Below, piece by piece: positions 1 through 16,886 of a stretch of DNA of 45,502 nucleotides; within the stretch, counting starts at the first letter, position 1; each line of letters begins with the position of its first letter. The notes under the pieces are model-generated. The model was not told the DNA's origin. It worked only from the letters and a program-made list of their open reading frames with translations, and ran no database searches. Source of the DNA: a virus (lineage: Duplodnaviria > Heunggongvirae > Uroviricota > Caudoviricetes); the IMG/VR virus record IMGVR_UViG_3300029705_000019; one strand, 5' to 3'. The position numbers were made by a program, and so were the translations under genes.

Positions 1-561
1 AAGAAGGAGCTTCACAGGCTGAGCAAGCGTAAACGAATTAATACATGCGCCAGTAGTGAATGTAATAGCACCCTCTTCGTCTACATAGTATAACTTCTGA
101 ATTGGCTTTGAAATGATGCCCTTGGTGAGTTCCTTACTATTAAACTGAATCAAAGAAAGAAGAATATCACTTGAAATATTAAAATTAACAGTTGGATTAT
201 TAATATCAATTTCAGGAAGTTCCATCAACTCTTCTCCGTCAAAGATGAGGGGGAGCTTATATGTACCATTTCCCTTTACAACAAGAGAATTACCAACAAT
301 GTTAATCTCAATTGTTTCAGTAGTAATCTGATCAATGAGCTTCAGGAAAAGATTTGCATTTACAGTTGCATGAAAATCAATCTTTTCTTTCATCGGAATT
401 CTTACTCTTGCAAAATACTCTCTGTTAGTTACTGACATAACAAGATCTTCTTCCACAGTTTTAAGCTGCAGAGTTTCCGTAAGAACAGAAAGTGCGTTTG
501 AGTCTACAGCTGCAAGAATCTTACTAGCGGCAGACTGCAGTTCTTCAATACGAACAATCAT
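1..561 (-). CDS. DNA sliding clamp, beta-clamp (DnaN)-like; runs off the left edge
   Basis: Not in the ORF track because it is truncated. Manual translation from ATG at 561 (GAAAGG upstream): MIVRIEELQSAASKILAAVDSNALSVLTETLQLKTVEEDLVMSVTNREYFARVRIP...ATVNANLFLKLIDQITTETIEINIVGNSLVVKGNGTYKLPLI, matching the pattern of DnaN domain I. Open for 187 codons to the edge. Confidence 0.7.
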   Translation of the reverse strand, partial: MIVRIEELQSAASKILAAVDSNALSVLTETLQLKTVEEDLVMSVTNREYFARVRIPMKEKIDFHATVNANLFLKLIDQITTETIEINIVGNSLVVKGNGTYKLPLIFDGEELMELPEIDINNPTVNFNISSDILLSLIQFNSKELTKGIISKPIQKLYYVDEEGAITFTTGACINSFTLAQPVKLLL

Positions 562-599
562 CTTTTATTTTCCTTTCAAAATTTATTTTTACATATTAT

Positions 600-628
600 A
601 TTATAGTATAAATGAACAGATTAATCAA
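600..628 (-). promoter_or_regulatory. sigma70/sigmaA-type promoter for the clamp gene
   Basis: TTGATT (628-623), 17 nt, TATAAT (605-600). Confidence 0.75.
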
Positions 629-629
629 C

Positions 630-1340
630 TTATAACTTTGAAATCATCTGTTCATATTCTTCAACTGTATTAAAATCTTTTGTTGTATAATTCTTAATTT
701 CAAGAACTTCAGCCTTGATTGGTGTTTCATTGAATACATCCAAGAATGTGAATTCATTGCCGTGCTGATGTGTGTATTTTTGAAGTTCATCAGACCAAAT
801 ACTTTCTTGAAAATCATTCAAATGAATCATTAAATCGCAAACATTACCGAAAAAGAGACTTAAGTCATGCCAACCTGCTGTAATCGGTTCTTTATATTTG
901 GAAAATAATACTTTGACAGAGTCTTCATCAGGTACAATTTGAACATATGGATTGTTCTCATATACGCAAGGAATTACAATCTTGCCGTTATAAGCGTTTT
1001 TAATAACTGAATAAATTGATGTATCATGGAAACAATCTCCCCATTGAATAAAACATAAATCATCCTTTTTAATAATGCCACGTAGCATTATCAATTTACC
1101 GATGGCTCTCCAAACTGCATCACCACAACCATAACCAGATTGAATTGTTAGTGTTTTATAATTAGTGAATAAGTGTCTGTTGCTGTTTGAACATACAACA
1201 AACACTTCATCACAAACAGTTTGCATATTTCTAATGTTAATATCCAACATAGGTTCACCATTGATTGGCATTAAACATTTTGGTGTACTATTCTTGAATC
1301 TTGACTGATTTCCTGCTGCAATTATAAATCCGTATACCAT
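630..1340 (-). CDS. NTP transferase (MobA/GlmU/LicC/CofC-like nucleotidyltransferase superfamily)
   Basis: N-terminal IIAAGNQSRFKNSTPKCLMPINGEPM signature, plus WGD and a C-terminal DFNTVEEY. Confidence 0.8.
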   Translation of the reverse strand: MVYGFIIAAGNQSRFKNSTPKCLMPINGEPMLDINIRNMQTVCDEVFVVCSNSNRHLFTNYKTLTIQSGYGCGDAVWRAIGKLIMLRGIIKKDDLCFIQWGDCFHDTSIYSVIKNAYNGKIVIPCVYENNPYVQIVPDEDSVKVLFSKYKEPITAGWHDLSLFFGNVCDLMIHLNDFQESIWSDELQKYTHQHGNEFTFLDVFNETPIKAEVLEIKNYTTKDFNTVEEYEQMISKL

Positions 1341-1343
1341 ATG

Positions 1344-3089
1344 TCACTTTTTATCTTCGTTCAAAAGTCTGAGCAGTAAATTCGTTTCGTACACATCATG
1401 AACATGAATTGCATTTGCAACAACACGAGAAATATCTGCATCATTACCTCCATCAAATTCATCTCCAACGTAAAGAATTGTTGATGGATCCTCTTCGAAC
1501 TGATTCATAACAGTAGTTTTATTATTTTTCTTTGACACAATATCCACTGTTGTTCTTCCTGTCTTGCGTGCAACACAATCATCAAGACCTTCTTTAGGAA
1601 GCAAATAATCATTGAGATAGTCAGCCAAAAGTGTCTGCTCAAAACTAGAGAGAGGCTTAATCTTAACACATGTGGTAAATGTGTCAGAATTTTTTATTGC
1701 ACTAATATTGTACTTATCATTAAGTATGTTAACAACATTATCAATTTTTACTGTGTCCATAAGCAGTTCAGGTATCCAACTAACAACATTGCGACCAATA
1801 ATCTGAACAGCATTTGCATCAGCCCAAATGGGCACCTTGAAATCAGTTAAATCACCACCATAAATGTAGGAAATTTTTTCAGAAATACTATGGTATGAAT
1901 TTCCTGAAACAATAACAGAATTATAACCCTTCTTATAAACTTCATTGAGCAACTTTAAGTTATCAACTGACTTAAGATAATTAAATTTATCAATATCAGA
2001 ATTGTTTGCAGGTCTTGCCCAAAGAGTATCATCAAAATCAAAGATATACTTTTTATACTTTTCAACATTGATAATACCGAAGTAGATCTTATAAATTGCA
2101 GTTGCAAGGGCATTCGGATCATGTTTACCACCCTTCAAGTTCCCCATGTCAAATCTACAAATATTAACATCGGGATTATCCTGTCTGAGTGATTCAACCG
2201 CATCATTATTCTGAAGAATTATAAAATCAGAAAGATCAAGGCCAAGCTTCTGGAATCTATGAATCATCTGATTACTAGTAACTCCGTATGCATCTTTATC
2301 TTCTTCATTATTAAGAATCCAGATTTTTCTTGCCGTTGATTCATTAATATAACGATAGAAGTCATCGTACTGAAGAGTTGGATAGATAGAGGCCCAGAAG
2401 GTGCCTGTTGAGATAATGATGAGATCTGCATCTTTTACAGCCTGAATTGCAGCTGGATTTGTTGTGACATTTTCAGGCATATTATCATAAACGATGTTTG
2501 TAATTGTGTCATCCTTAGTTGCAAATTCAACAATTTCACCCTCATCTTCAATGAGCTTTCCCTGAGCAGTTTGAGCTTGAATGAAAACATTATCAAATGA
2601 ATTAAGAATTACAAAATCATTGAGTTTAAGAAGCTGACAAAAGAACCTATTAGTTTCTTCATATCCATGATCAGAATACATCTGTGAGTAGATAATGTTA
2701 GAAACACTGAAGTCTTTGTATGTATAATTTTTTGATTCAGGACGAGCAAAAAATCTTTCTGCATACAGAATAAGATATTCTAAGCCCCAAAAAACAAGTT
2801 TTTGAGTTACTTCCTTCAGCTCATCCCCCGGAGTAAAATCGTAACGACCCTCATAAAACTCAATGAGATTTTGATTCGGAATATCATACAGAGCTTTATA
2901 CATTCGATAATGATTCTTACGAATATCGGACACTCCGAGAGTATTTGTTACCTTACGACATACACCTGTTGATTTTCCGTTGTCATATGCGTTGACAAGA
3001 ACTTTAAGATTTACCTCAGGATACATCTTAACAATGCCCTTAACAAGAGAATCATTACCGGAACCACCTGATATAATTAAAGTATTCAT
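1344..3089 (-). CDS. CofD/YvcK (UPF0052)-family domain fused to a HAD-IIB phosphatase/phosphomutase domain
   Basis: N-terminal ISGGSG, VNAYDNGKSTG..R, SDIR and ADLIIISTGTFWASIYP are typical of YvcK/CofD. C-terminal FDFDDTLW, VSGN, KTGRTTVDI..K..NK and YVGDEFDGGND are HAD motifs I-IV, PMM-like. Confidence 0.8.
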   Translation of the reverse strand: MNTLIISGGSGNDSLVKGIVKMYPEVNLKVLVNAYDNGKSTGVCRKVTNTLGVSDIRKNHYRMYKALYDIPNQNLIEFYEGRYDFTPGDELKEVTQKLVFWGLEYLILYAERFFARPESKNYTYKDFSVSNIIYSQMYSDHGYEETNRFFCQLLKLNDFVILNSFDNVFIQAQTAQGKLIEDEGEIVEFATKDDTITNIVYDNMPENVTTNPAAIQAVKDADLIIISTGTFWASIYPTLQYDDFYRYINESTARKIWILNNEEDKDAYGVTSNQMIHRFQKLGLDLSDFIILQNNDAVESLRQDNPDVNICRFDMGNLKGGKHDPNALATAIYKIYFGIINVEKYKKYIFDFDDTLWARPANNSDIDKFNYLKSVDNLKLLNEVYKKGYNSVIVSGNSYHSISEKISYIYGGDLTDFKVPIWADANAVQIIGRNVVSWIPELLMDTVKIDNVVNILNDKYNISAIKNSDTFTTCVKIKPLSSFEQTLLADYLNDYLLPKEGLDDCVARKTGRTTVDIVSKKNNKTTVMNQFEEDPSTILYVGDEFDGGNDADISRVVANAIHVHDVYETNLLLRLLNEDKK

Positions 3090-3103
3090 TGTTCAACCTC
3101 CCC

Positions 3104-4006
3104 TTAAAATAGACTAACCTTTGTTACATTATTTTCTTTTACAATAGAACTTTTTGCTCCTCGAGCAACGTATGGTTTGATTCTGTCACGCTCATAATCA
3201 TTACGAGGTAAACAAATGTCTTTTCTTACTTCATAAGGATTAACATGATGATGATTCATTTTGTCAGCTGTTTCAAGAATATATTCATCAATCTTATCAA
3301 ACAGTGTGGGCGGATATTCATATGTGCCCTTCTCATTTGCCCATGTACATGACATCTTTGAAGATGGCTTGTTGATAATAACAGTTGGAGCAAGATAAGA
3401 ATTGGTAAAACGCTGTAATGTTCGAGCGAAATAAACATCATCAGCTGTTCCTTGTCTTGTATCACAACGATCATCAATGTAATATTCTTGATTATAATCA
3501 CGCTTAAAATTTTTGTGAAACAATCCGTGCATCCAATTGTAGCTCTTGTTATTTTTTGTCGGAACAATATGGACTGTATCAAAGAAATCTTCAGCTTTCT
3601 TAAACTGCATTCTTTCCTGTGAAATCCACATTCCAAGAGTTGCAAAAATTGCATCGCACTGATTTAGCTTGTCAGCTTGAATGGCTTGAATAATTGTTGT
3701 AACATCATTCAAAGTGGCTTTTGAAACCATCGAGTTTGCATCAATCCAGAATGCATAATCATAATCAGAATTATAAAAGTACTCAAGAAGTTTATTTCTT
3801 GGAAGTACCCAACCCATTCTTTCTGTTGCGTGACCTATATATGTAAATCTATCATCAAAATCTGATTCTTCAAAACATTGATCATAGATAACATACTTAT
3901 CAAGTTTTAGATGTTCATAATTATATTGAAGTGCTTTTTTGTTGATGTCGCGGTTGTTTGGCAACATCAAACACGGAATAAGAGCCATGATTTTTGCCAT
4001 AGACAA
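3104..4006 (-). CDS. GT-A fold glycosyltransferase-like protein (probable start is the ATG two codons in, after GGAGG)
   Basis: PRNKLLEYFYNSDYDYAFWIDAN (RN...DxD-like) and a DDVYF motif typical of GT2-like enzymes. Confidence 0.6.
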   Translation of the reverse strand: MSMAKIMALIPCLMLPNNRDINKKALQYNYEHLKLDKYVIYDQCFEESDFDDRFTYIGHATERMGWVLPRNKLLEYFYNSDYDYAFWIDANSMVSKATLNDVTTIIQAIQADKLNQCDAIFATLGMWISQERMQFKKAEDFFDTVHIVPTKNNKSYNWMHGLFHKNFKRDYNQEYYIDDRCDTRQGTADDVYFARTLQRFTNSYLAPTVIINKPSSKMSCTWANEKGTYEYPPTLFDKIDEYILETADKMNHHHVNPYEVRKDICLPRNDYERDRIKPYVARGAKSSIVKENNVTKVSLF

Positions 4007-4012
4007 CCTCCA

Positions 4013-4744
4013 TCAATCATTCCAACCAGGATATTCAATAAACTTGTACGCTCCAACAAGTTCACCATCAATAGAAATAATCTGACCTGTCATAACTGTA
4101 TTTTTAACAAGCAAGAAATATATCCATTCTGCGATTTCTTCTACAGTTGCAAGACGCTTTAATACGCTCAAATTTGCTATGTTATCCATAAGTTCAGGCT
4201 GTGCATAAAGTTCAGGTTCAAGAGAAGTACCCTGAATGCCTTTTTCAGGATCAGCTGCAACAATTCCATCAAGGTTAAGACCGTTAACAAGAACATGACG
4301 AGGATCTTTACCATAATTATTTGCAGCCCACATAGTTAGTGCATCTCGACCGCCCTGAGAAGCACAATAGCGGATGTTGTCATATCCTTTTCGACTTGCT
4401 GTTGATCCAATCTGAACAATGCTCTTAAGCATCTCATCATTTCCATACTTCTCAAGTACATTGATATAACCCATAAGATTAACATTCAAAGCTAGCTTCT
4501 GTGGAGTTACAATACCAGCGTTGTTAACAATATATGTAATATCAGTGACATCGGGTAATTCATGAGAATTGCTTACATCACATTTGTAATGAGTATAAGA
4601 AGTTGAATCAATTGTGGAGTCCTTCCAATCAAGTCCAACTACCTGAAAACCTTCATTAATAAACTTAATAGCTGCTGCACGACCGACACCACAACTTGTA
4701 CCAGTAATGAGCACTTTACCACGATAACATTCCATAATAGTCAC
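4013..4744 (-). CDS. Short-chain dehydrogenase/reductase (SDR)
   Basis: LITGTSCGVG (TGxxxGxG), NNAG, GSTAS, YCASQ (YxxxK variant), and a C-terminal TGQIISIDG. Confidence 0.85.
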   Translation of the reverse strand: MTIMECYRGKVLITGTSCGVGRAAAIKFINEGFQVVGLDWKDSTIDSTSYTHYKCDVSNSHELPDVTDITYIVNNAGIVTPQKLALNVNLMGYINVLEKYGNDEMLKSIVQIGSTASRKGYDNIRYCASQGGRDALTMWAANNYGKDPRHVLVNGLNLDGIVAADPEKGIQGTSLEPELYAQPELMDNIANLSVLKRLATVEEIAEWIYFLLVKNTVMTGQIISIDGELVGAYKFIEYPGWND

Positions 4745-4747
4745 CTC

Positions 4748-5968
4748 TTACCACAGCTCAACTTTCGTCTTTGGAACAATGGGCTTCATATTACGAATTC
4801 TTTCCATCCAGATTTCAGTGTCCTCAATATTAAATCTCGCACGAGCATAACAGTTTGTAGAAAGAACATTACCTGGATCGTATGTAACCTTATCCTTACC
4901 ATCAAATGTGAGATGATGTTCACCAAAGGTCCACGTGCCTTTAAATCCATCAACTACTTCATCTTCATCAGTATCCATGAGTTCAACTTTATCAAGTTTG
5001 AATTCATCAACAGCATTGCCATGAATAAGAAGAATGGTCTGATCATTATCTTTTCTCACTACATAATCGGTTTCATCAATTGTAAATTCAATCTGATTTA
5101 CATCTGTCACTCGATAGTTAGCTTCAAGAGGATTTACAAGATAGCCTCTTTCACGGATTATATCTTCAACAGCCTTCTGAAAACCTAAAGAACGCTCTCC
5201 GTAATAATTACCACAAAGTTTTTCACGCTGAACATCACTAATATAGATTGTCTTGTCTTCAATCGCAACCATTCCGTAAGCAGCACGTTTAACCCAAGAG
5301 GTTGCATCAGTTGAATAAACATCTATGTGTTCAAGTACAGAACGAACACCAACACCAAATGCGTGAGTCTTGATTTCAGGATTGCTACTCTCAGAAATAA
5401 TTTTCATGGCATCCTGACCCCATGCAATTCTTACCTTCTTTGTACCCTCCAAAGAAATAGCAAGACCCATATAGGCAACTTTTGACCCGTCTGGATGAAC
5501 ATGTTCGAGATACTTCTTGAGCCACTTCCAATCCTCACCATAGTGGAAAACAGGAATTAACTTATGACGAAGTTCAGGTTTAAGTTTTTCCCACATGTAA
5601 AGATAGTTCTTCCATGTTTTTTCGGCAAACGACTGATCCACATCATCAGGATTTGGGACGGAGTCAACTCCAACAAAGCATTCGAGTCCGTCACCCCACT
5701 CATTAAGGAACTCAAGATATGTATCAGTGTAAGCGTACATGTCTTCATCAGTTAGAACAATGCCCTTCTTCTTGGAGTTCTGATAATGAGTAAATGCACC
5801 AGAATCGCACATTATTTTCGCAGTATATTCTGGATGTTCTCGTTTATATTTGATGGTGTCAATAATTAAATTTTTTTCGTGATAAACCGTAAACAGCTGG
5901 TCACAATTCATTTCACGCTTTAGCGTTGGATGATATGCACCAGAGTAATAATATACTTGACAACTCAA
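4748..5968 (-). CDS. tRNA-guanine transglycosylase (TGT)/DpdA-like base-exchange enzyme
   Basis: CDSGAF, VD..P, IPVFH, KTHAFG and STDATSW...YG match the TGT TIM-barrel catalytic Asp motifs as seen in phage homologues. TTG start after GTGAGG. Confidence 0.75.
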   Translation of the reverse strand: MSCQVYYYSGAYHPTLKREMNCDQLFTVYHEKNLIIDTIKYKREHPEYTAKIMCDSGAFTHYQNSKKKGIVLTDEDMYAYTDTYLEFLNEWGDGLECFVGVDSVPNPDDVDQSFAEKTWKNYLYMWEKLKPELRHKLIPVFHYGEDWKWLKKYLEHVHPDGSKVAYMGLAISLEGTKKVRIAWGQDAMKIISESSNPEIKTHAFGVGVRSVLEHIDVYSTDATSWVKRAAYGMVAIEDKTIYISDVQREKLCGNYYGERSLGFQKAVEDIIRERGYLVNPLEANYRVTDVNQIEFTIDETDYVVRKDNDQTILLIHGNAVDEFKLDKVELMDTDEDEVVDGFKGTWTFGEHHLTFDGKDKVTYDPGNVLSTNCYARARFNIEDTEIWMERIRNMKPIVPKTKVELW

Positions 5969-6013
5969 TTATACATTAACCTCACTTTCTTTATTTGTAT
6001 TATTTACAATTAT

Positions 6014-6042
6014 ATTATAATATGGTTCGTTGATTTAATCAA
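6014..6042 (-). promoter_or_regulatory. sigmaA-type promoter for the TGT-like operon
   Basis: TTGATT (6042-6037), 17 nt, TATAAT (6019-6014). Confidence 0.75.
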
Positions 6043-6043
6043 C

Positions 6044-7507
6044 TTAATTTTCCCAAACATATGTGGCTTGGCCCGCATCATAAATCTCAACAAATCCATG
6101 TTTCAGCATCAATTCGTCATTACGAGTGCCTTTACCATAACAACCAAATTCTTTACCAAGCAATTGGTCAAATCCTCGCTGACGAAGTAAATTATCAGTT
6201 ATATGACGAGCATCTTTTGGATGAGCCCAGTGTTTACTTATGGATGAATCTTTGTATGTAAACCCCAGTTTTTCATATGTTTTGCCTTCAAACTTTGATT
6301 CGTCACAATAACTAACTATGCTTTTTGGCCGATATGTTTTTACAAAATAGCTGAACAATTTTTCTGCTCCACCAATAACATTATAAATTGAACAGTATCG
6401 AATAAGTTCATACTCATATCTTTGATTGTATCGAGGTTTTCCAAATGTCATAACTGATACAAGCTCATCGTTATAAAATAATCCGATATCGATTGAACTC
6501 TGTGCATAGCCCTGCAGATGATTGTTAATTAAAAATTGTTTTGTTGTAGTTTTATCAATAGAACTGATTGTACATTTACGAGCGTAGATGGTCAGCCTTG
6601 GAAGCAAAAGTTTGATAATCGATGAAAATTTGTCCCAATCCCAAATATGAATACACCTGTAACCATGAGCTTTTGCAGTGTCGCTTTTTCTTTTGTGATA
6701 TTCTTTTTGTAGCGGATCACCGCCATGTGGATTCCATGTAGAATTATGAGTTGGAATCGGATCAATTTCAATTAACACATTTCCAATCTTAAAATCATAA
6801 CTATAATTTTCAAGTCTAAATTCCCGCTGAATTTGATCCTCTGAAAATACCTTAAGAAGTTCATTATTAAATGCACAATTTGGACCACTGTTTTTACCAC
6901 CAGCAGATGTACGTGCTTCATCACGCATACATGGCCATGGAACTCCATATTTTTCGAGACAATTGTCGCTTAACTGTTGTTTTATATGAGGCGCTTGCAT
7001 TGGATTCTTTACACCATATTTTTCCATGCAAGTGGCTTCACATTGCTTATTGAACATAGGTGACTTTGCAAAATTATCAACACCATATTTTTCAGTGCTT
7101 GTTTTCCGTTGCTCAGCAACCATGTGCTCAACATACGCTTCATGAGAACCAAAAGTATGTGTATGTACAATTCGAAGTTCTTCAGCCTGAGTTCTTTTTG
7201 GTAAGTTTAACTCTTCGATGACCATACTCACAATTCGATCACTTGTGCGAAAAAAGTTTTTTGTTTCAAATCGTGTATGTGGCTCAAGATAATAATCAGC
7301 AACAGCTTGTTTCCACTCAATACATCTATTTCTGTAATGTGGTACATATTCTCGAGTTTTAACAAGATTAGCTTCATACAGTATTTGATACGCTATATCT
7401 GGGTGCATATCAAATGACTGTGCAAACTGTTTTGGATTGTTACCCAATAGATATTGTTCAATAACAAGTTGTCTTATATCTGTTGTTATATCTTTATAAC
7501 TTAGCAT
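6044..7507 (-). CDS. Hef-like putative homing endonuclease: HTH-like N-terminus, KYG repeats, PD-(D/E)xK/DUF559-like nuclease, GNAT/Mom-like C-terminal domain
   Basis: EKYGVDNF, EKYGVKNP and EKYGVPWP repeats; YSYDFKIGNVLIEID..H nuclease motif; HIWDWD; NHLQGY...YELIRYCS...GGAEKLF...IVSYCD...Y.KLGF. Confidence 0.65.
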   Translation of the reverse strand: MLSYKDITTDIRQLVIEQYLLGNNPKQFAQSFDMHPDIAYQILYEANLVKTREYVPHYRNRCIEWKQAVADYYLEPHTRFETKNFFRTSDRIVSMVIEELNLPKRTQAEELRIVHTHTFGSHEAYVEHMVAEQRKTSTEKYGVDNFAKSPMFNKQCEATCMEKYGVKNPMQAPHIKQQLSDNCLEKYGVPWPCMRDEARTSAGGKNSGPNCAFNNELLKVFSEDQIQREFRLENYSYDFKIGNVLIEIDPIPTHNSTWNPHGGDPLQKEYHKRKSDTAKAHGYRCIHIWDWDKFSSIIKLLLPRLTIYARKCTISSIDKTTTKQFLINNHLQGYAQSSIDIGLFYNDELVSVMTFGKPRYNQRYEYELIRYCSIYNVIGGAEKLFSYFVKTYRPKSIVSYCDESKFEGKTYEKLGFTYKDSSISKHWAHPKDARHITDNLLRQRGFDQLLGKEFGCYGKGTRNDELMLKHGFVEIYDAGQATYVWEN

Positions 7508-7528
7508 TGTAGTTGCTCCATTTATATA

Positions 7529-7557
7529 TTTATATAATGAAACTATTAGAAGATCAA
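7529..7557 (-). promoter_or_regulatory. sigmaA-type promoter for the Hef-like gene
   Basis: TTGATC (7557-7552), 17 nt, TATAAA (7534-7529). Confidence 0.6.
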
Positions 7558-7558
7558 C

Positions 7559-7726
7559 TTATTTGTTTAATTGTTTATTTTCTGTTTTTTCAGCTACATG
7601 CTGTTCAATAAGTTTTTTTACATAGTTCGAAATTGAGCGATCTTCCTTGTCGGCAAGAGCCTTAAGTTGTTCATACAATTCAATAGGTATGTATGTCTGA
7701 ACAACCATCTTATCTTTATAGATCAT
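7559..7726 (-). CDS. Ribbon-helix-helix (CopG-like) DNA-binding protein
   Basis: VVQTYIPIELYEQLKALADKEDRSISNYVKKLIEQHV. Start at ATG 7726 after AAGGAG. Confidence 0.8.
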   Translation of the reverse strand: MIYKDKMVVQTYIPIELYEQLKALADKEDRSISNYVKKLIEQHVAEKTENKQLNK

Positions 7727-7797
7727 TTGATTTTCTCCTTCACTTATATTATACAATGTTAATAATTTTATTTTAATAAAAATATTATCAAATAATT

Positions 7798-7826
7798 ACG
7801 AGCATAATATTTTCAATTATGCCCGC
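7798..7826 (-). terminator. Hairpin, probable terminator after the transporter pair
   Basis: Minus strand GCGGGCATAAT/ATTATGCTCGT stem with G-U pairs, followed by AATTATTT. Confidence 0.5.
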
Positions 7827-7833
7827 TTTTGAA

Positions 7834-8100
7834 TTATTTGTGTTTCATACATACAATTATATAGTAAATATTGACAAATACTAATACACCGTTTAACAAG
7901 ATCATACCAGCTCCAAGTGAACCGAGTAACACACCATAAACAACTGATACAACACTACCAATAAGATTAAACCACCTCATAAGTAGCGCTCCTCGCTTAG
8001 TACGTGTGTTAAAACACATAGAAACAAGAACTATCAAACTGGCCAATAGCCCAATGAGGGCTATTGGATCAGTTACTAAATTTATAAAATATTCAGTCAT
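7834..8100 (-). CDS. Small membrane protein, YgjV/SemiSWEET-like (about 3 TM helices)
   Basis: IGLLASLIVLVSM..., LMRWFNLIGSVVSVVYGVLLG. Its start overlaps the yhhQ stop (ATGA-type overlap). Confidence 0.55.
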   Translation of the reverse strand: MTEYFINLVTDPIALIGLLASLIVLVSMCFNTRTKRGALLMRWFNLIGSVVSVVYGVLLGSLGAGMILLNGVLVFVNIYYIIVCMKHK

Positions 8101-16172: not shown

Positions 16173-16886
16173 TTATCTATGAGTTAGACCTCTTTTATCA
16201 CTGCCGAATAACTCAATATTTGTTGACAAGTTCATTATTCTGCTGTAAAGTCTGTCGCCAACTTTCTCTCGAAGTTCATTACCAGTTAAGTTTGATGTGT
16301 AGATATTGGACTTATTCATATCAATTCGTGTATTGATTAGATTCAATATCTGCTCATGTTCCCACGCTGTAAGAGATTTTGTACCAACTTCATCAAATAC
16401 AACTAGATCAGCTGTAAAGATGTTTTTCTTAATATGATCTATATAATCACTTGAAGTACTAATAGAATCTTTTAATGCAAGAATAAATCTTGGAACATTA
16501 ATAAACAACACCTTGCATGTTAAATCTGACTTGTGCCAAATCTTACCAACATATGATTGAAGTAATCTTAATGACCAAGCTGTTTTGCCATTTCCACAGA
16601 TTGAGGAATGAATGTACAGATTTGTTCCATCCTCAACAAATTTCTCAATATTTTCTTCAATTTTCTTTAACTGAATGAATGCTTCTCTATCTGTTCCATC
16701 ATCATCAATTCTTAAAGATTGATATTTTCTCTGCTTCGGAGACATTAATGATTCGTCATATAAATAGTTGATGCGAAAAAATCTTGGACAATAGATTGCA
16801 CTATGTTTACATTCTGCGTCAGTGTTGTGATATTTCCAACACTGATCCTGCAGATAACATTCATCACTTAGCTGAATACCTGACAA
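16173..16886 (-). CDS. DnaC/IstB-like AAA+ helicase loader
   Basis: SICGNGKT (Walker A), LVVFDEVG (Walker B), IYTSNL, RLYSRI. Confidence 0.85.
   Translation of the reverse strand: MSGIQLSDECYLQDQCWKYHNTDAECKHSAIYCPRFFRINYLYDESLMSPKQRKYQSLRIDDDGTDREAFIQLKKIEENIEKFVEDGTNLYIHSSICGNGKTAWSLRLLQSYVGKIWHKSDLTCKVLFINVPRFILALKDSISTSSDYIDHIKKNIFTADLVVFDEVGTKSLTAWEHEQILNLINTRIDMNKSNIYTSNLTGNELREKVGDRLYSRIMNLSTNIELFGSDKRGLTHR

Follow-up and report, generated by a model that had tools for sequence, protein, structure and literature searches.

A shared C-terminal peptide that probably tethers a DpdA-like transglycosylase and a glycosyltransferase to the sliding clamp of a tailed phage

Two enzymes encoded near each other in a phage genome end in almost the same six residues, which raises the question of what this common end is for. 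The stretch of DNA, called here the window, comprises the 45,502 nucleotides of the IMG/VR virus record IMGVR_UViG_3300029705_000019 (Caudoviricetes). It is part of a 410-kb metagenomic contig, and all its genes lie on the minus strand. The first enzyme is a DpdA-like DNA (7-deazaguanine) transglycosylase and the second a GT-A-fold glycosyltransferase-like enzyme. A first-pass annotation, made from the sequence alone, had proposed that the two are unrelated and that both ride the phage clamp. Our analysis points in the same direction: the two tails are probably clamp-binding peptides, a [KR]-x-x-L-[FW] variant of the bacterial beta-clamp motif, that recruit both enzymes to newly made DNA.

The tails were read from the open reading frames (ORFs). 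The ORF of the DpdA-like enzyme (4748-5968, minus strand) encodes 406 residues and ends ...PKTKVELW, with the stop codon at 4748-4750 and the putative clamp-binding peptide TKVELW at 4751-4768. The ORF of the glycosyltransferase (3104-4006, minus strand) encodes 298 residues from the ATG at 4000 (gene 3104-4000) and ends ...NVTKVSLF, with the stop codon at 3104-3106 and the putative peptide TKVSLF at 3107-3124. The shared end described by the first-pass annotation is therefore real. It is written in different codons, ACG AAA GTT GAG CTG TGG in the DpdA-like gene and ACA AAG GTT AGT CTA TTT in the glycosyltransferase gene. Since four of the six codons differ, the likeness lies in the peptide and is not a DNA repeat. 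For a chance estimate, the 44 non-nested ORFs of at least 80 amino acids in the window were used, which contain 14,379 positions. The pattern [KR]xxL[FW] occurs in them seven times, so that 0.021 C-terminal occurrences are expected, and two were observed (P(≥2) = 2e-4).

The enzymes in front of these tails have different folds. The DpdA-like protein matched phrog_887 (E 1.7e-34), which bears the label 'queuine tRNA-ribosyltransferase', and Foldseek matched its AlphaFold2 model to tRNA-guanine transglycosylases (TGTs) with a probability of 1.0. With tblastn, the DpdAs of the phages MS1, Dp-1, 9g and CAjan were found at 25-31% identity, and D55, D102 and D221 are invariant in the alignment. From the family, the gene context and the tail we infer that its substrate is DNA. 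The tRNA-modifying Tgt of E. coli, taken as a negative control, has the C-terminus PPLNVD and is without such a tail. In the forms of about 400 residues an all-beta insert of about 90 residues (residues ~281-364), which may be an extra DNA-binding module, precedes the last helix, whereas the forms of 308-319 residues are without it. A DpdA profile run against the sequences of the Protein Data Bank (PDB), a pattern scan of IMG/VR with DpdA and a megablast of window positions 1-8000 against cultured phages gave no match. The glycosyltransferase matched no family in Pfam or PHROG. In Foldseek it was similar to TarP (6h1j, E 3.7e-8, TM ~0.5), TarS, RmlT and WrtF, all with a probability of 1.0, and D79, D81, D87 and N89 in the segment DYDYAFWIDAN are nearly invariant. 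A GT-A fold and a TGT fold make the two enzymes truly unrelated, as had been claimed.

The conservation of the tails was examined in homologues of both proteins. Among the best 120 DpdA homologues (53-100% identity, 308-430 residues), all 120 end in L-W, L-F or L-G-W and 119 have a lysine or arginine at position -5; in most of them the last residue is tryptophan rather than phenylalanine. The glycosyltransferase ends in L-[FW] in 78 of 100 homologues and in L-[FWY] plus one or two residues in six more. A [KR]xxL[FW]-type end is thus retained in 120/120 and in about 84/100 homologues, and most of the other glycosyltransferases seem to be shortened or divergent along the entire C-terminal stretch. 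Within the 76 distinct L[FW] tails of the glycosyltransferases, K/R is found at -5 in 92% and V/I at -4 in 79%. Positions -6 to -14 have a column entropy of about 3 bits, against 0.8-1.2 at -5, 0 at -2 and 0.3-0.5 at -1, and the linker preceding the motif differs among the homologues in both its length and its sequence. Constrained positions -5, -2 and -1 behind a near-random linker are the signature of a short linear motif on a free linker. The first-pass annotation had named unconserved tails as a refutation of its reading, and the homologues show the opposite. The structure models agree with this. In the AlphaFold2 model of DpdA (mean predicted local distance difference test, pLDDT, 91.5) residues 393-406 are coil and residues 403-406 fall below a pLDDT of 50, and in that of the glycosyltransferase (pLDDT 93.6) the last ~20 residues are unstructured with a pLDDT of 53-55.

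A scan for such tails took in the window (45.5 kb), the adjoining 10 kb and, from relatives, six loci of 21 kb each. Among the ~260 ORFs of these eight loci, DpdA and the glycosyltransferase alone carry the tail consistently. The RecU-like resolvase encoded directly after the clamp gene was considered as a further client and rejected. It ends in SLPEGW, NLPEDW and NLPDNW in three loci (L001:11910-12383, which lies on the 410-kb contig; L007:18823-19296; L008:16492-16965) and is without this end in L010, L011 and L012, three of the four other relatives.

Clamp-binding motifs of bacteria are well known. The beta clamp is bound by a pentapeptide QL[SD]LF or a hexapeptide QLxLxL, which are found in Pol III alpha, Pol II, Pol IV, UmuC, MutS, Hda and delta. 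The tails described here have the same design as in these clients: a terminal peptide on a flexible linker, an end of the type h-x-L-F, a beta (DnaN) clamp encoded by the phage and several clients for one motif. At the free terminus, h-x-L-[FW] fits positions 2-5 of QL[SD]LF, with V/I, S/D/E, L and F/W. The tails differ from the bacterial motif in having K/R for Q, often W for F and in some homologues an L-G-W end, and their docking is predicted. To our knowledge, DNA-hypermodification enzymes, represented here by a base-exchange transglycosylase and a glycosyltransferase, are not among the clamp clients of bacteria. The code that had been read as TKV(S/E)L(F/W) was drawn too narrowly: what is conserved is [KR]-x-x-L-[FW]. 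The proposal of a phage-specific clamp code stands in part, since the W and K variants are specific for the clade, whereas the LF ending is of the general beta-clamp type.

A related peptide is found on the DNA polymerase, at its other end. The N-terminal fragment of a PolA-type polymerase (11283-12905, minus strand; PF01612 and PF00476), which contains the exonuclease domain and the start of the polymerase domain, begins with MADSLWGDEF (12876-12905), confirming the start MADSLWG that had been pointed out earlier. This putative clamp-binding peptide is kept as M(x0-2)SLWG[DEA]xF in 7/7 related loci, and the lysine-rich linker behind it varies. Hda is a precedent for an N-terminal clamp motif and resembles the polymerase peptide in its position. 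The Queuovirinae polymerases have a conserved N-terminal MR.D[AS][IFL]G[FLM]FW. In the window the polymerase is in pieces (8983-12905) of 540, 87-88 and 280-284 residues, the C-terminal fragment being encoded at 8983-9837 (minus strand; PF00476, E 3e-36). A GIY-YIG/NUMOD3 homing-endonuclease-like gene lies between the pieces (9883-10830, within the minus-strand cluster). The polymerase is whole in the related phages of loci L009 and L010 and split differently in others. A contig of the same phage from another sample (L002:1078-2358) has, oddly, a gene call of 426 residues upstream of Vut_1, with FliG_N/M/C Pfam and weak PolA matches, in place of the GIY-YIG gene and the C-terminal PolA fragment of the window.

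The receptor for the peptides would be the clamp of the phage itself. A truncated gene for a beta-type sliding clamp (1-561, minus strand), encoding the N-terminal 187 residues with matches to PF00712 (E 1.6e-5) and phrog_947 (E 2.4e-12), closes the cluster as had been stated, and the full clamp of 376 residues is encoded on the 410-kb contig (L001:10780-11910). A profile of the clamp family, built from 111 relatives, matched solved beta clamps (1vpk, E 7e-11). Downstream of the clamp, the 410-kb contig encodes RecU, RecA and gamma/tau-, delta'- and delta-like clamp-loader proteins, and the loader genes are present in all four loci that extend that far (L001, L009, L011, L012). In the six related contigs, which were found through their DpdA homologues, the genes for DnaB, primase, PolA, Vut_1, DpdA, the short-chain dehydrogenase/reductase (SDR), the clamp, RecU-like protein and RecA follow in this order, and in two of the six the genes for the glycosyltransferase, CofD and nucleotidyltransferase stand between the SDR and clamp genes. 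A beta-type clamp of 372-380 residues is encoded 1-4 genes downstream of DpdA in 7/7 related loci. The clamp family strongly conserves the segment G-x-I-T-F-T-x-G-A-C-V-N-x-F (164-177) and a C-terminal [VI]-[IL]-P-E. We take these to resemble ...TDGHRL... (T172-L177) and ...VVMPMRL (V361-M364) of E. coli DnaN, the strands that line the peptide cleft.

The docking of the DpdA tail was then predicted with two copies of the clamp and the last 32 residues of DpdA, alongside three controls. The clamp-tail runs gave ipSAE values of 0.60, 0.59 and 0.61, the best of the three controls reached 0.00, and the result was rated 'weak support'. Of 80 solved complexes 58 pass the ipSAE mark, as do 2 of 110 mismatched pairs; the range from the mark up to 0.60, however, holds only 7 of these 80 and both of the passing mismatches. 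The contact agreement between the runs was at least 93% and the pLDDT of the partner at least 54. Since clamp-peptide complexes have already been solved and are in the PDB, the score may partly reflect memory. In our view the prediction adds a little to a hypothesis that the conservation of the tails had already made likely.

Distant DpdAs show a comparable picture. We compared the DpdA loci of eleven cultured phages, in which the DpdAs are at 25-33% identity, and found a C-terminal end that resembles a clamp motif, LF or QxxLxGxL, in 10 of the 11, Seuratvirus among them. The ends are ...KQNRLF in MS1 (Dp-1-like), ...SQGKLF in Flasso, ...RVMELF in VogelGryff, ...LQDLFDE in 9g, ...RIQELF in PaP002, ...MIQGLF in CA8, ...DIQELF in R7M, ...EQMELF in a Stenotrophomonas phage, ...QQYLLGDL in R26L and ...QQYLFGGL in Pan1. 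The last two, from Nanhaivirus, resemble the Pol IV motif QLVLGL and are of the hexapeptide type. These DpdAs have 433 residues (L021:3195-4496; L022:3201-4502), and genes for an exonuclease V-like protein, an epsilon-like protein and a beta clamp come after theirs. In 10/11 phages DpdA has an annotated clamp gene as its neighbour, one small ORF away or within ~2.5 kb. The gene at the corresponding downstream place in R26L bears the annotation 'hypothetical', and the clamp there is inferred from the synteny with Pan1.

The exception among the eleven is phiSM, whose DpdA is without a tail. There, the ends NQVNLF and SVNLF are found on gp53, a DpdM of the CxxCxxCC/YkgJ family, and on gp51, the overlapping ParB-like neighbour. 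DpdM has been proposed to methylate dPreQ1 that is already in DNA (Cui et al. 2023, bioRxiv 10.1101/2023.04.13.536721). In Pan1, a YkgJ/DpdM-like gene directly upstream of DpdA encodes a protein that ends ...KPLLVEA and has no tail. Taken over these phages, we lean slightly towards the view that clamp docking is a general property of 7-deazaguanine DNA modification, with DpdA and the polymer-decorating enzymes carrying a peptide matched to the clamp of their own phage. With the same slight preference, the polymer-decorating carriers would be the GT-A enzyme here and DpdM and the ParB/DpdB-like protein in phiSM.

In the whole 9g proteome such ends were found on DpdA and on one protein of the tail module only. 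The latter is gp62 (L025:36460-36888, 142 residues), encoded between the tail tube and tape-measure genes, which ends ...AAQDSLFF; the likeness may be accidental or point to another use of the motif. The superfamily II helicase gp11 of 9g (L025:3046-5049, minus strand of the locus) ends ...DFDDDIPF, which we take to be the tip that E. coli SSB has at its C-terminus. As a possible mimic of the SSB tail, this end may recruit SSB-binding proteins.

Known systems in which a clamp guides a modifying enzyme offer a comparison. In eukaryotes, DNMT1 and UNG2 bind PCNA through a PIP-box. There, too, the clamp holds an enzyme that modifies DNA or excises bases, so that it acts on newly replicated DNA, but the clamp, the motif and the chemistry are different, and the likeness is purely functional. 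In T4 and RB69 the clients gp43, gp55 and gp33 bind gp45 through C-terminal peptides. Here as there, the phage clamp would be a hub for terminal hydrophobic peptides of several phage proteins, and the idea of a DNA glucosyltransferase working with the replisome is common to both, but gp45 is a PCNA-like trimer and the clamp of our phage is of the beta dimer type. T4 alpha-glucosyltransferase reportedly interacts with gp45, according to work by Sommer et al. from 2004, and we know of no recognised terminal motif on this enzyme.

Several points weigh against the clamp-binding role of the tails. The T4 precedent, the only experimental one for a phage glucosyltransferase on a clamp, had been treated as established by the first-pass annotation but is contested: a study with C-terminally His-tagged enzymes failed to reproduce the binding of alpha-glucosyltransferase to gp45, both in vitro and in vivo (bioRxiv 10.64898/2025.12.06.692756). 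In the tails themselves the canonical Q position holds K/R, and a terminal W is uncommon among the ligands of beta clamps. PolA-family replicases do not belong to the classical users of a clamp, so that the polymerase peptide is a putative clamp ligand. The comparison of the clamp family with E. coli DnaN by hhalign gave a probability of 1.2%, too weak to map the cleft. The score of the predicted complex lies in the weak band, and clamp docking is a prediction. Finally, a clamp gene is near every DpdA locus sampled, so that co-occurrence cannot discriminate between the explanations. On the other side stand the conservation and the disorder of the tails, the polymerase peptide, the co-encoded clamp and loader and the distant DpdAs. 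Together, these sequence and model data favour the reading that both enzymes ride the phage clamp.

The alternative that keeps closest to this reading is that the tails dock on the host beta clamp (DnaN), instead of or besides the phage clamp, and that the enzymes are recruited to any clamp-loaded DNA. Termini of the type h-x-L-F are the generic bacterial clamp-binding type, and the DpdA tails that end in LF, which come from phages with very different hosts, resemble ordinary host-type motifs. Yet every phage examined has its own clamp, often a very divergent one, beside DpdA, and K/R at -5 together with the W ending is clade-specific, which suggests a co-adaptation to the phage clamp. We regard docking on the host clamp as improbable. 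To about the same degree we doubt that the shared peptide binds another common partner, such as the polymerase, a helicase, SSB or a scaffold of a modification complex, with no involvement of the clamp. Terminal peptides do serve other hubs, as the C-terminal tips of SSB do, and the 9g helicase bears an end of that kind. However, the polymerase, the enzyme most expected on a clamp, has a related terminal peptide itself, which makes it another client and not the hub. Unlike the acidic SSB or T7-type tails, the motif combines hydrophobic and basic character, the adjacency to a clamp gene recurs across unrelated phage groups, and the control in which an unrelated protein replaced the clamp scored 0.00.

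Much less likely still is a convergent structural or regulatory element without docking, such as an oligomer contact, an autoinhibitory plug or a degradation signal. Hydrophobic C-termini can be recognition signals for proteases, but two unrelated folds share the same motif, as do DpdM and the ParB-like protein in phiSM, and the tail, itself unstructured, is set apart from the fold by a linker of variable length. Chance, which a short motif with just four constrained positions might allow, is effectively refuted by the low probability of two such ends among the 44 ORFs and by the retention of the motif in more than 200 homologues behind random linkers.

Assuming that the tails are clamp-binding peptides, the modification could proceed as follows. 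The clamp loader of the phage would leave clamps on the newly made duplex, and KVELW and KVSLF, on their flexible linkers, would dock into the peptide-binding cleft of these beta-type clamps. DpdA and the glycosyltransferase, held by the clamps, would slide along the fresh DNA, where DpdA would replace guanine by a salvaged 7-deazaguanine base; decoration of the DNA by the glycosyltransferase would follow. The SLWG peptide at the N-terminus of PolA probably competes for the same cleft. The tail-less SDR, CofD-like enzyme and nucleotidyltransferase would make the soluble donor. With the clamp as the receptor, modification would be coupled to replication and occur behind the fork.

In the order of transcription, the cluster consists of PolA (split by GIY-YIG), Vut_1/YhhQ, a DUF7487/Mom-like protein, DpdA, SDR, the GT-A enzyme, a CofD-like protein, a MobA-like protein and the clamp. 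The Vut_1/YhhQ-type queuosine-precursor transporter is encoded at 8097-8882 (minus strand; PF02592, E 1e-19). The SDR (4013-4744, minus strand; PF13561 and PF00106) ends ...YPGWND without a tail and probably acts on a small-molecule precursor. Likewise without a tail are a CofD-like transferase fusion of 581 residues (1344-3089, minus strand; PF01933, E 3e-24) and a MobA-like nucleotidyltransferase (630-1340, minus strand; PF12804, E 5e-9). A TGT-fold DpdA, a Vut_1/YhhQ transporter nearby and a replication module are shared with the known phage DpdA systems (Hutinet et al. 2019; Cui et al. 2023), whereas here SDR, GT-A enzyme, CofD-like enzyme and nucleotidyltransferase follow DpdA. This succession suggests a further, uncharacterised hypermodification. 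A DnaC/IstB-like helicase loader (window 16173-16886, minus strand) has the peptide N-I-E-L-[FC]-G about 10 residues from its C-terminus, which is kept in four relatives (among them L007:1259-1981, L009:1488-2192 and L011:1601-2284). It is probably part of the AAA+ fold, with an internal clamp-motif-like peptide as the alternative.

The clamp 'tool-belt' and terminal clamp-binding motifs are already well known. Papers on phage DpdA conclude that 7-deazaguanine insertion is post-replicative, and the searchable DpdA literature has no mention of a clamp, a C-terminal motif or the adjacency of DpdA and clamp genes (PMC6884629, bioRxiv 10.1101/2023.04.13.536721, PMC10484667, PMC7544227). Nor does it describe beta-clamp clients among DNA-hypermodification enzymes, a motif variant with K and W, or the generality of the pattern across DpdA phages. 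If the reading is true, the clamp tether would supply a replication-coupled mechanism for how DpdA finds and modifies up to all guanines of a phage genome, with base exchange physically coupled to replication. It would also explain why DpdAs that are expressed without the phage clamp show low or failed modification and may explain why heterologous expression modifies DNA poorly. A terminal [KR]xxL[FW] or xLF would then serve as a rule to predict the DNA-acting members of a hypermodification cluster and to tell them from those that work on soluble precursors. The phages 9g, CAjan/Seurat and Dp-1 are tractable, and the tails of cultured phages show the same pattern. Hypermodification enzymes would thereby join the 'tool-belt' of the bacterial-type clamp, as a prokaryotic counterpart of DNMT1 and PCNA.

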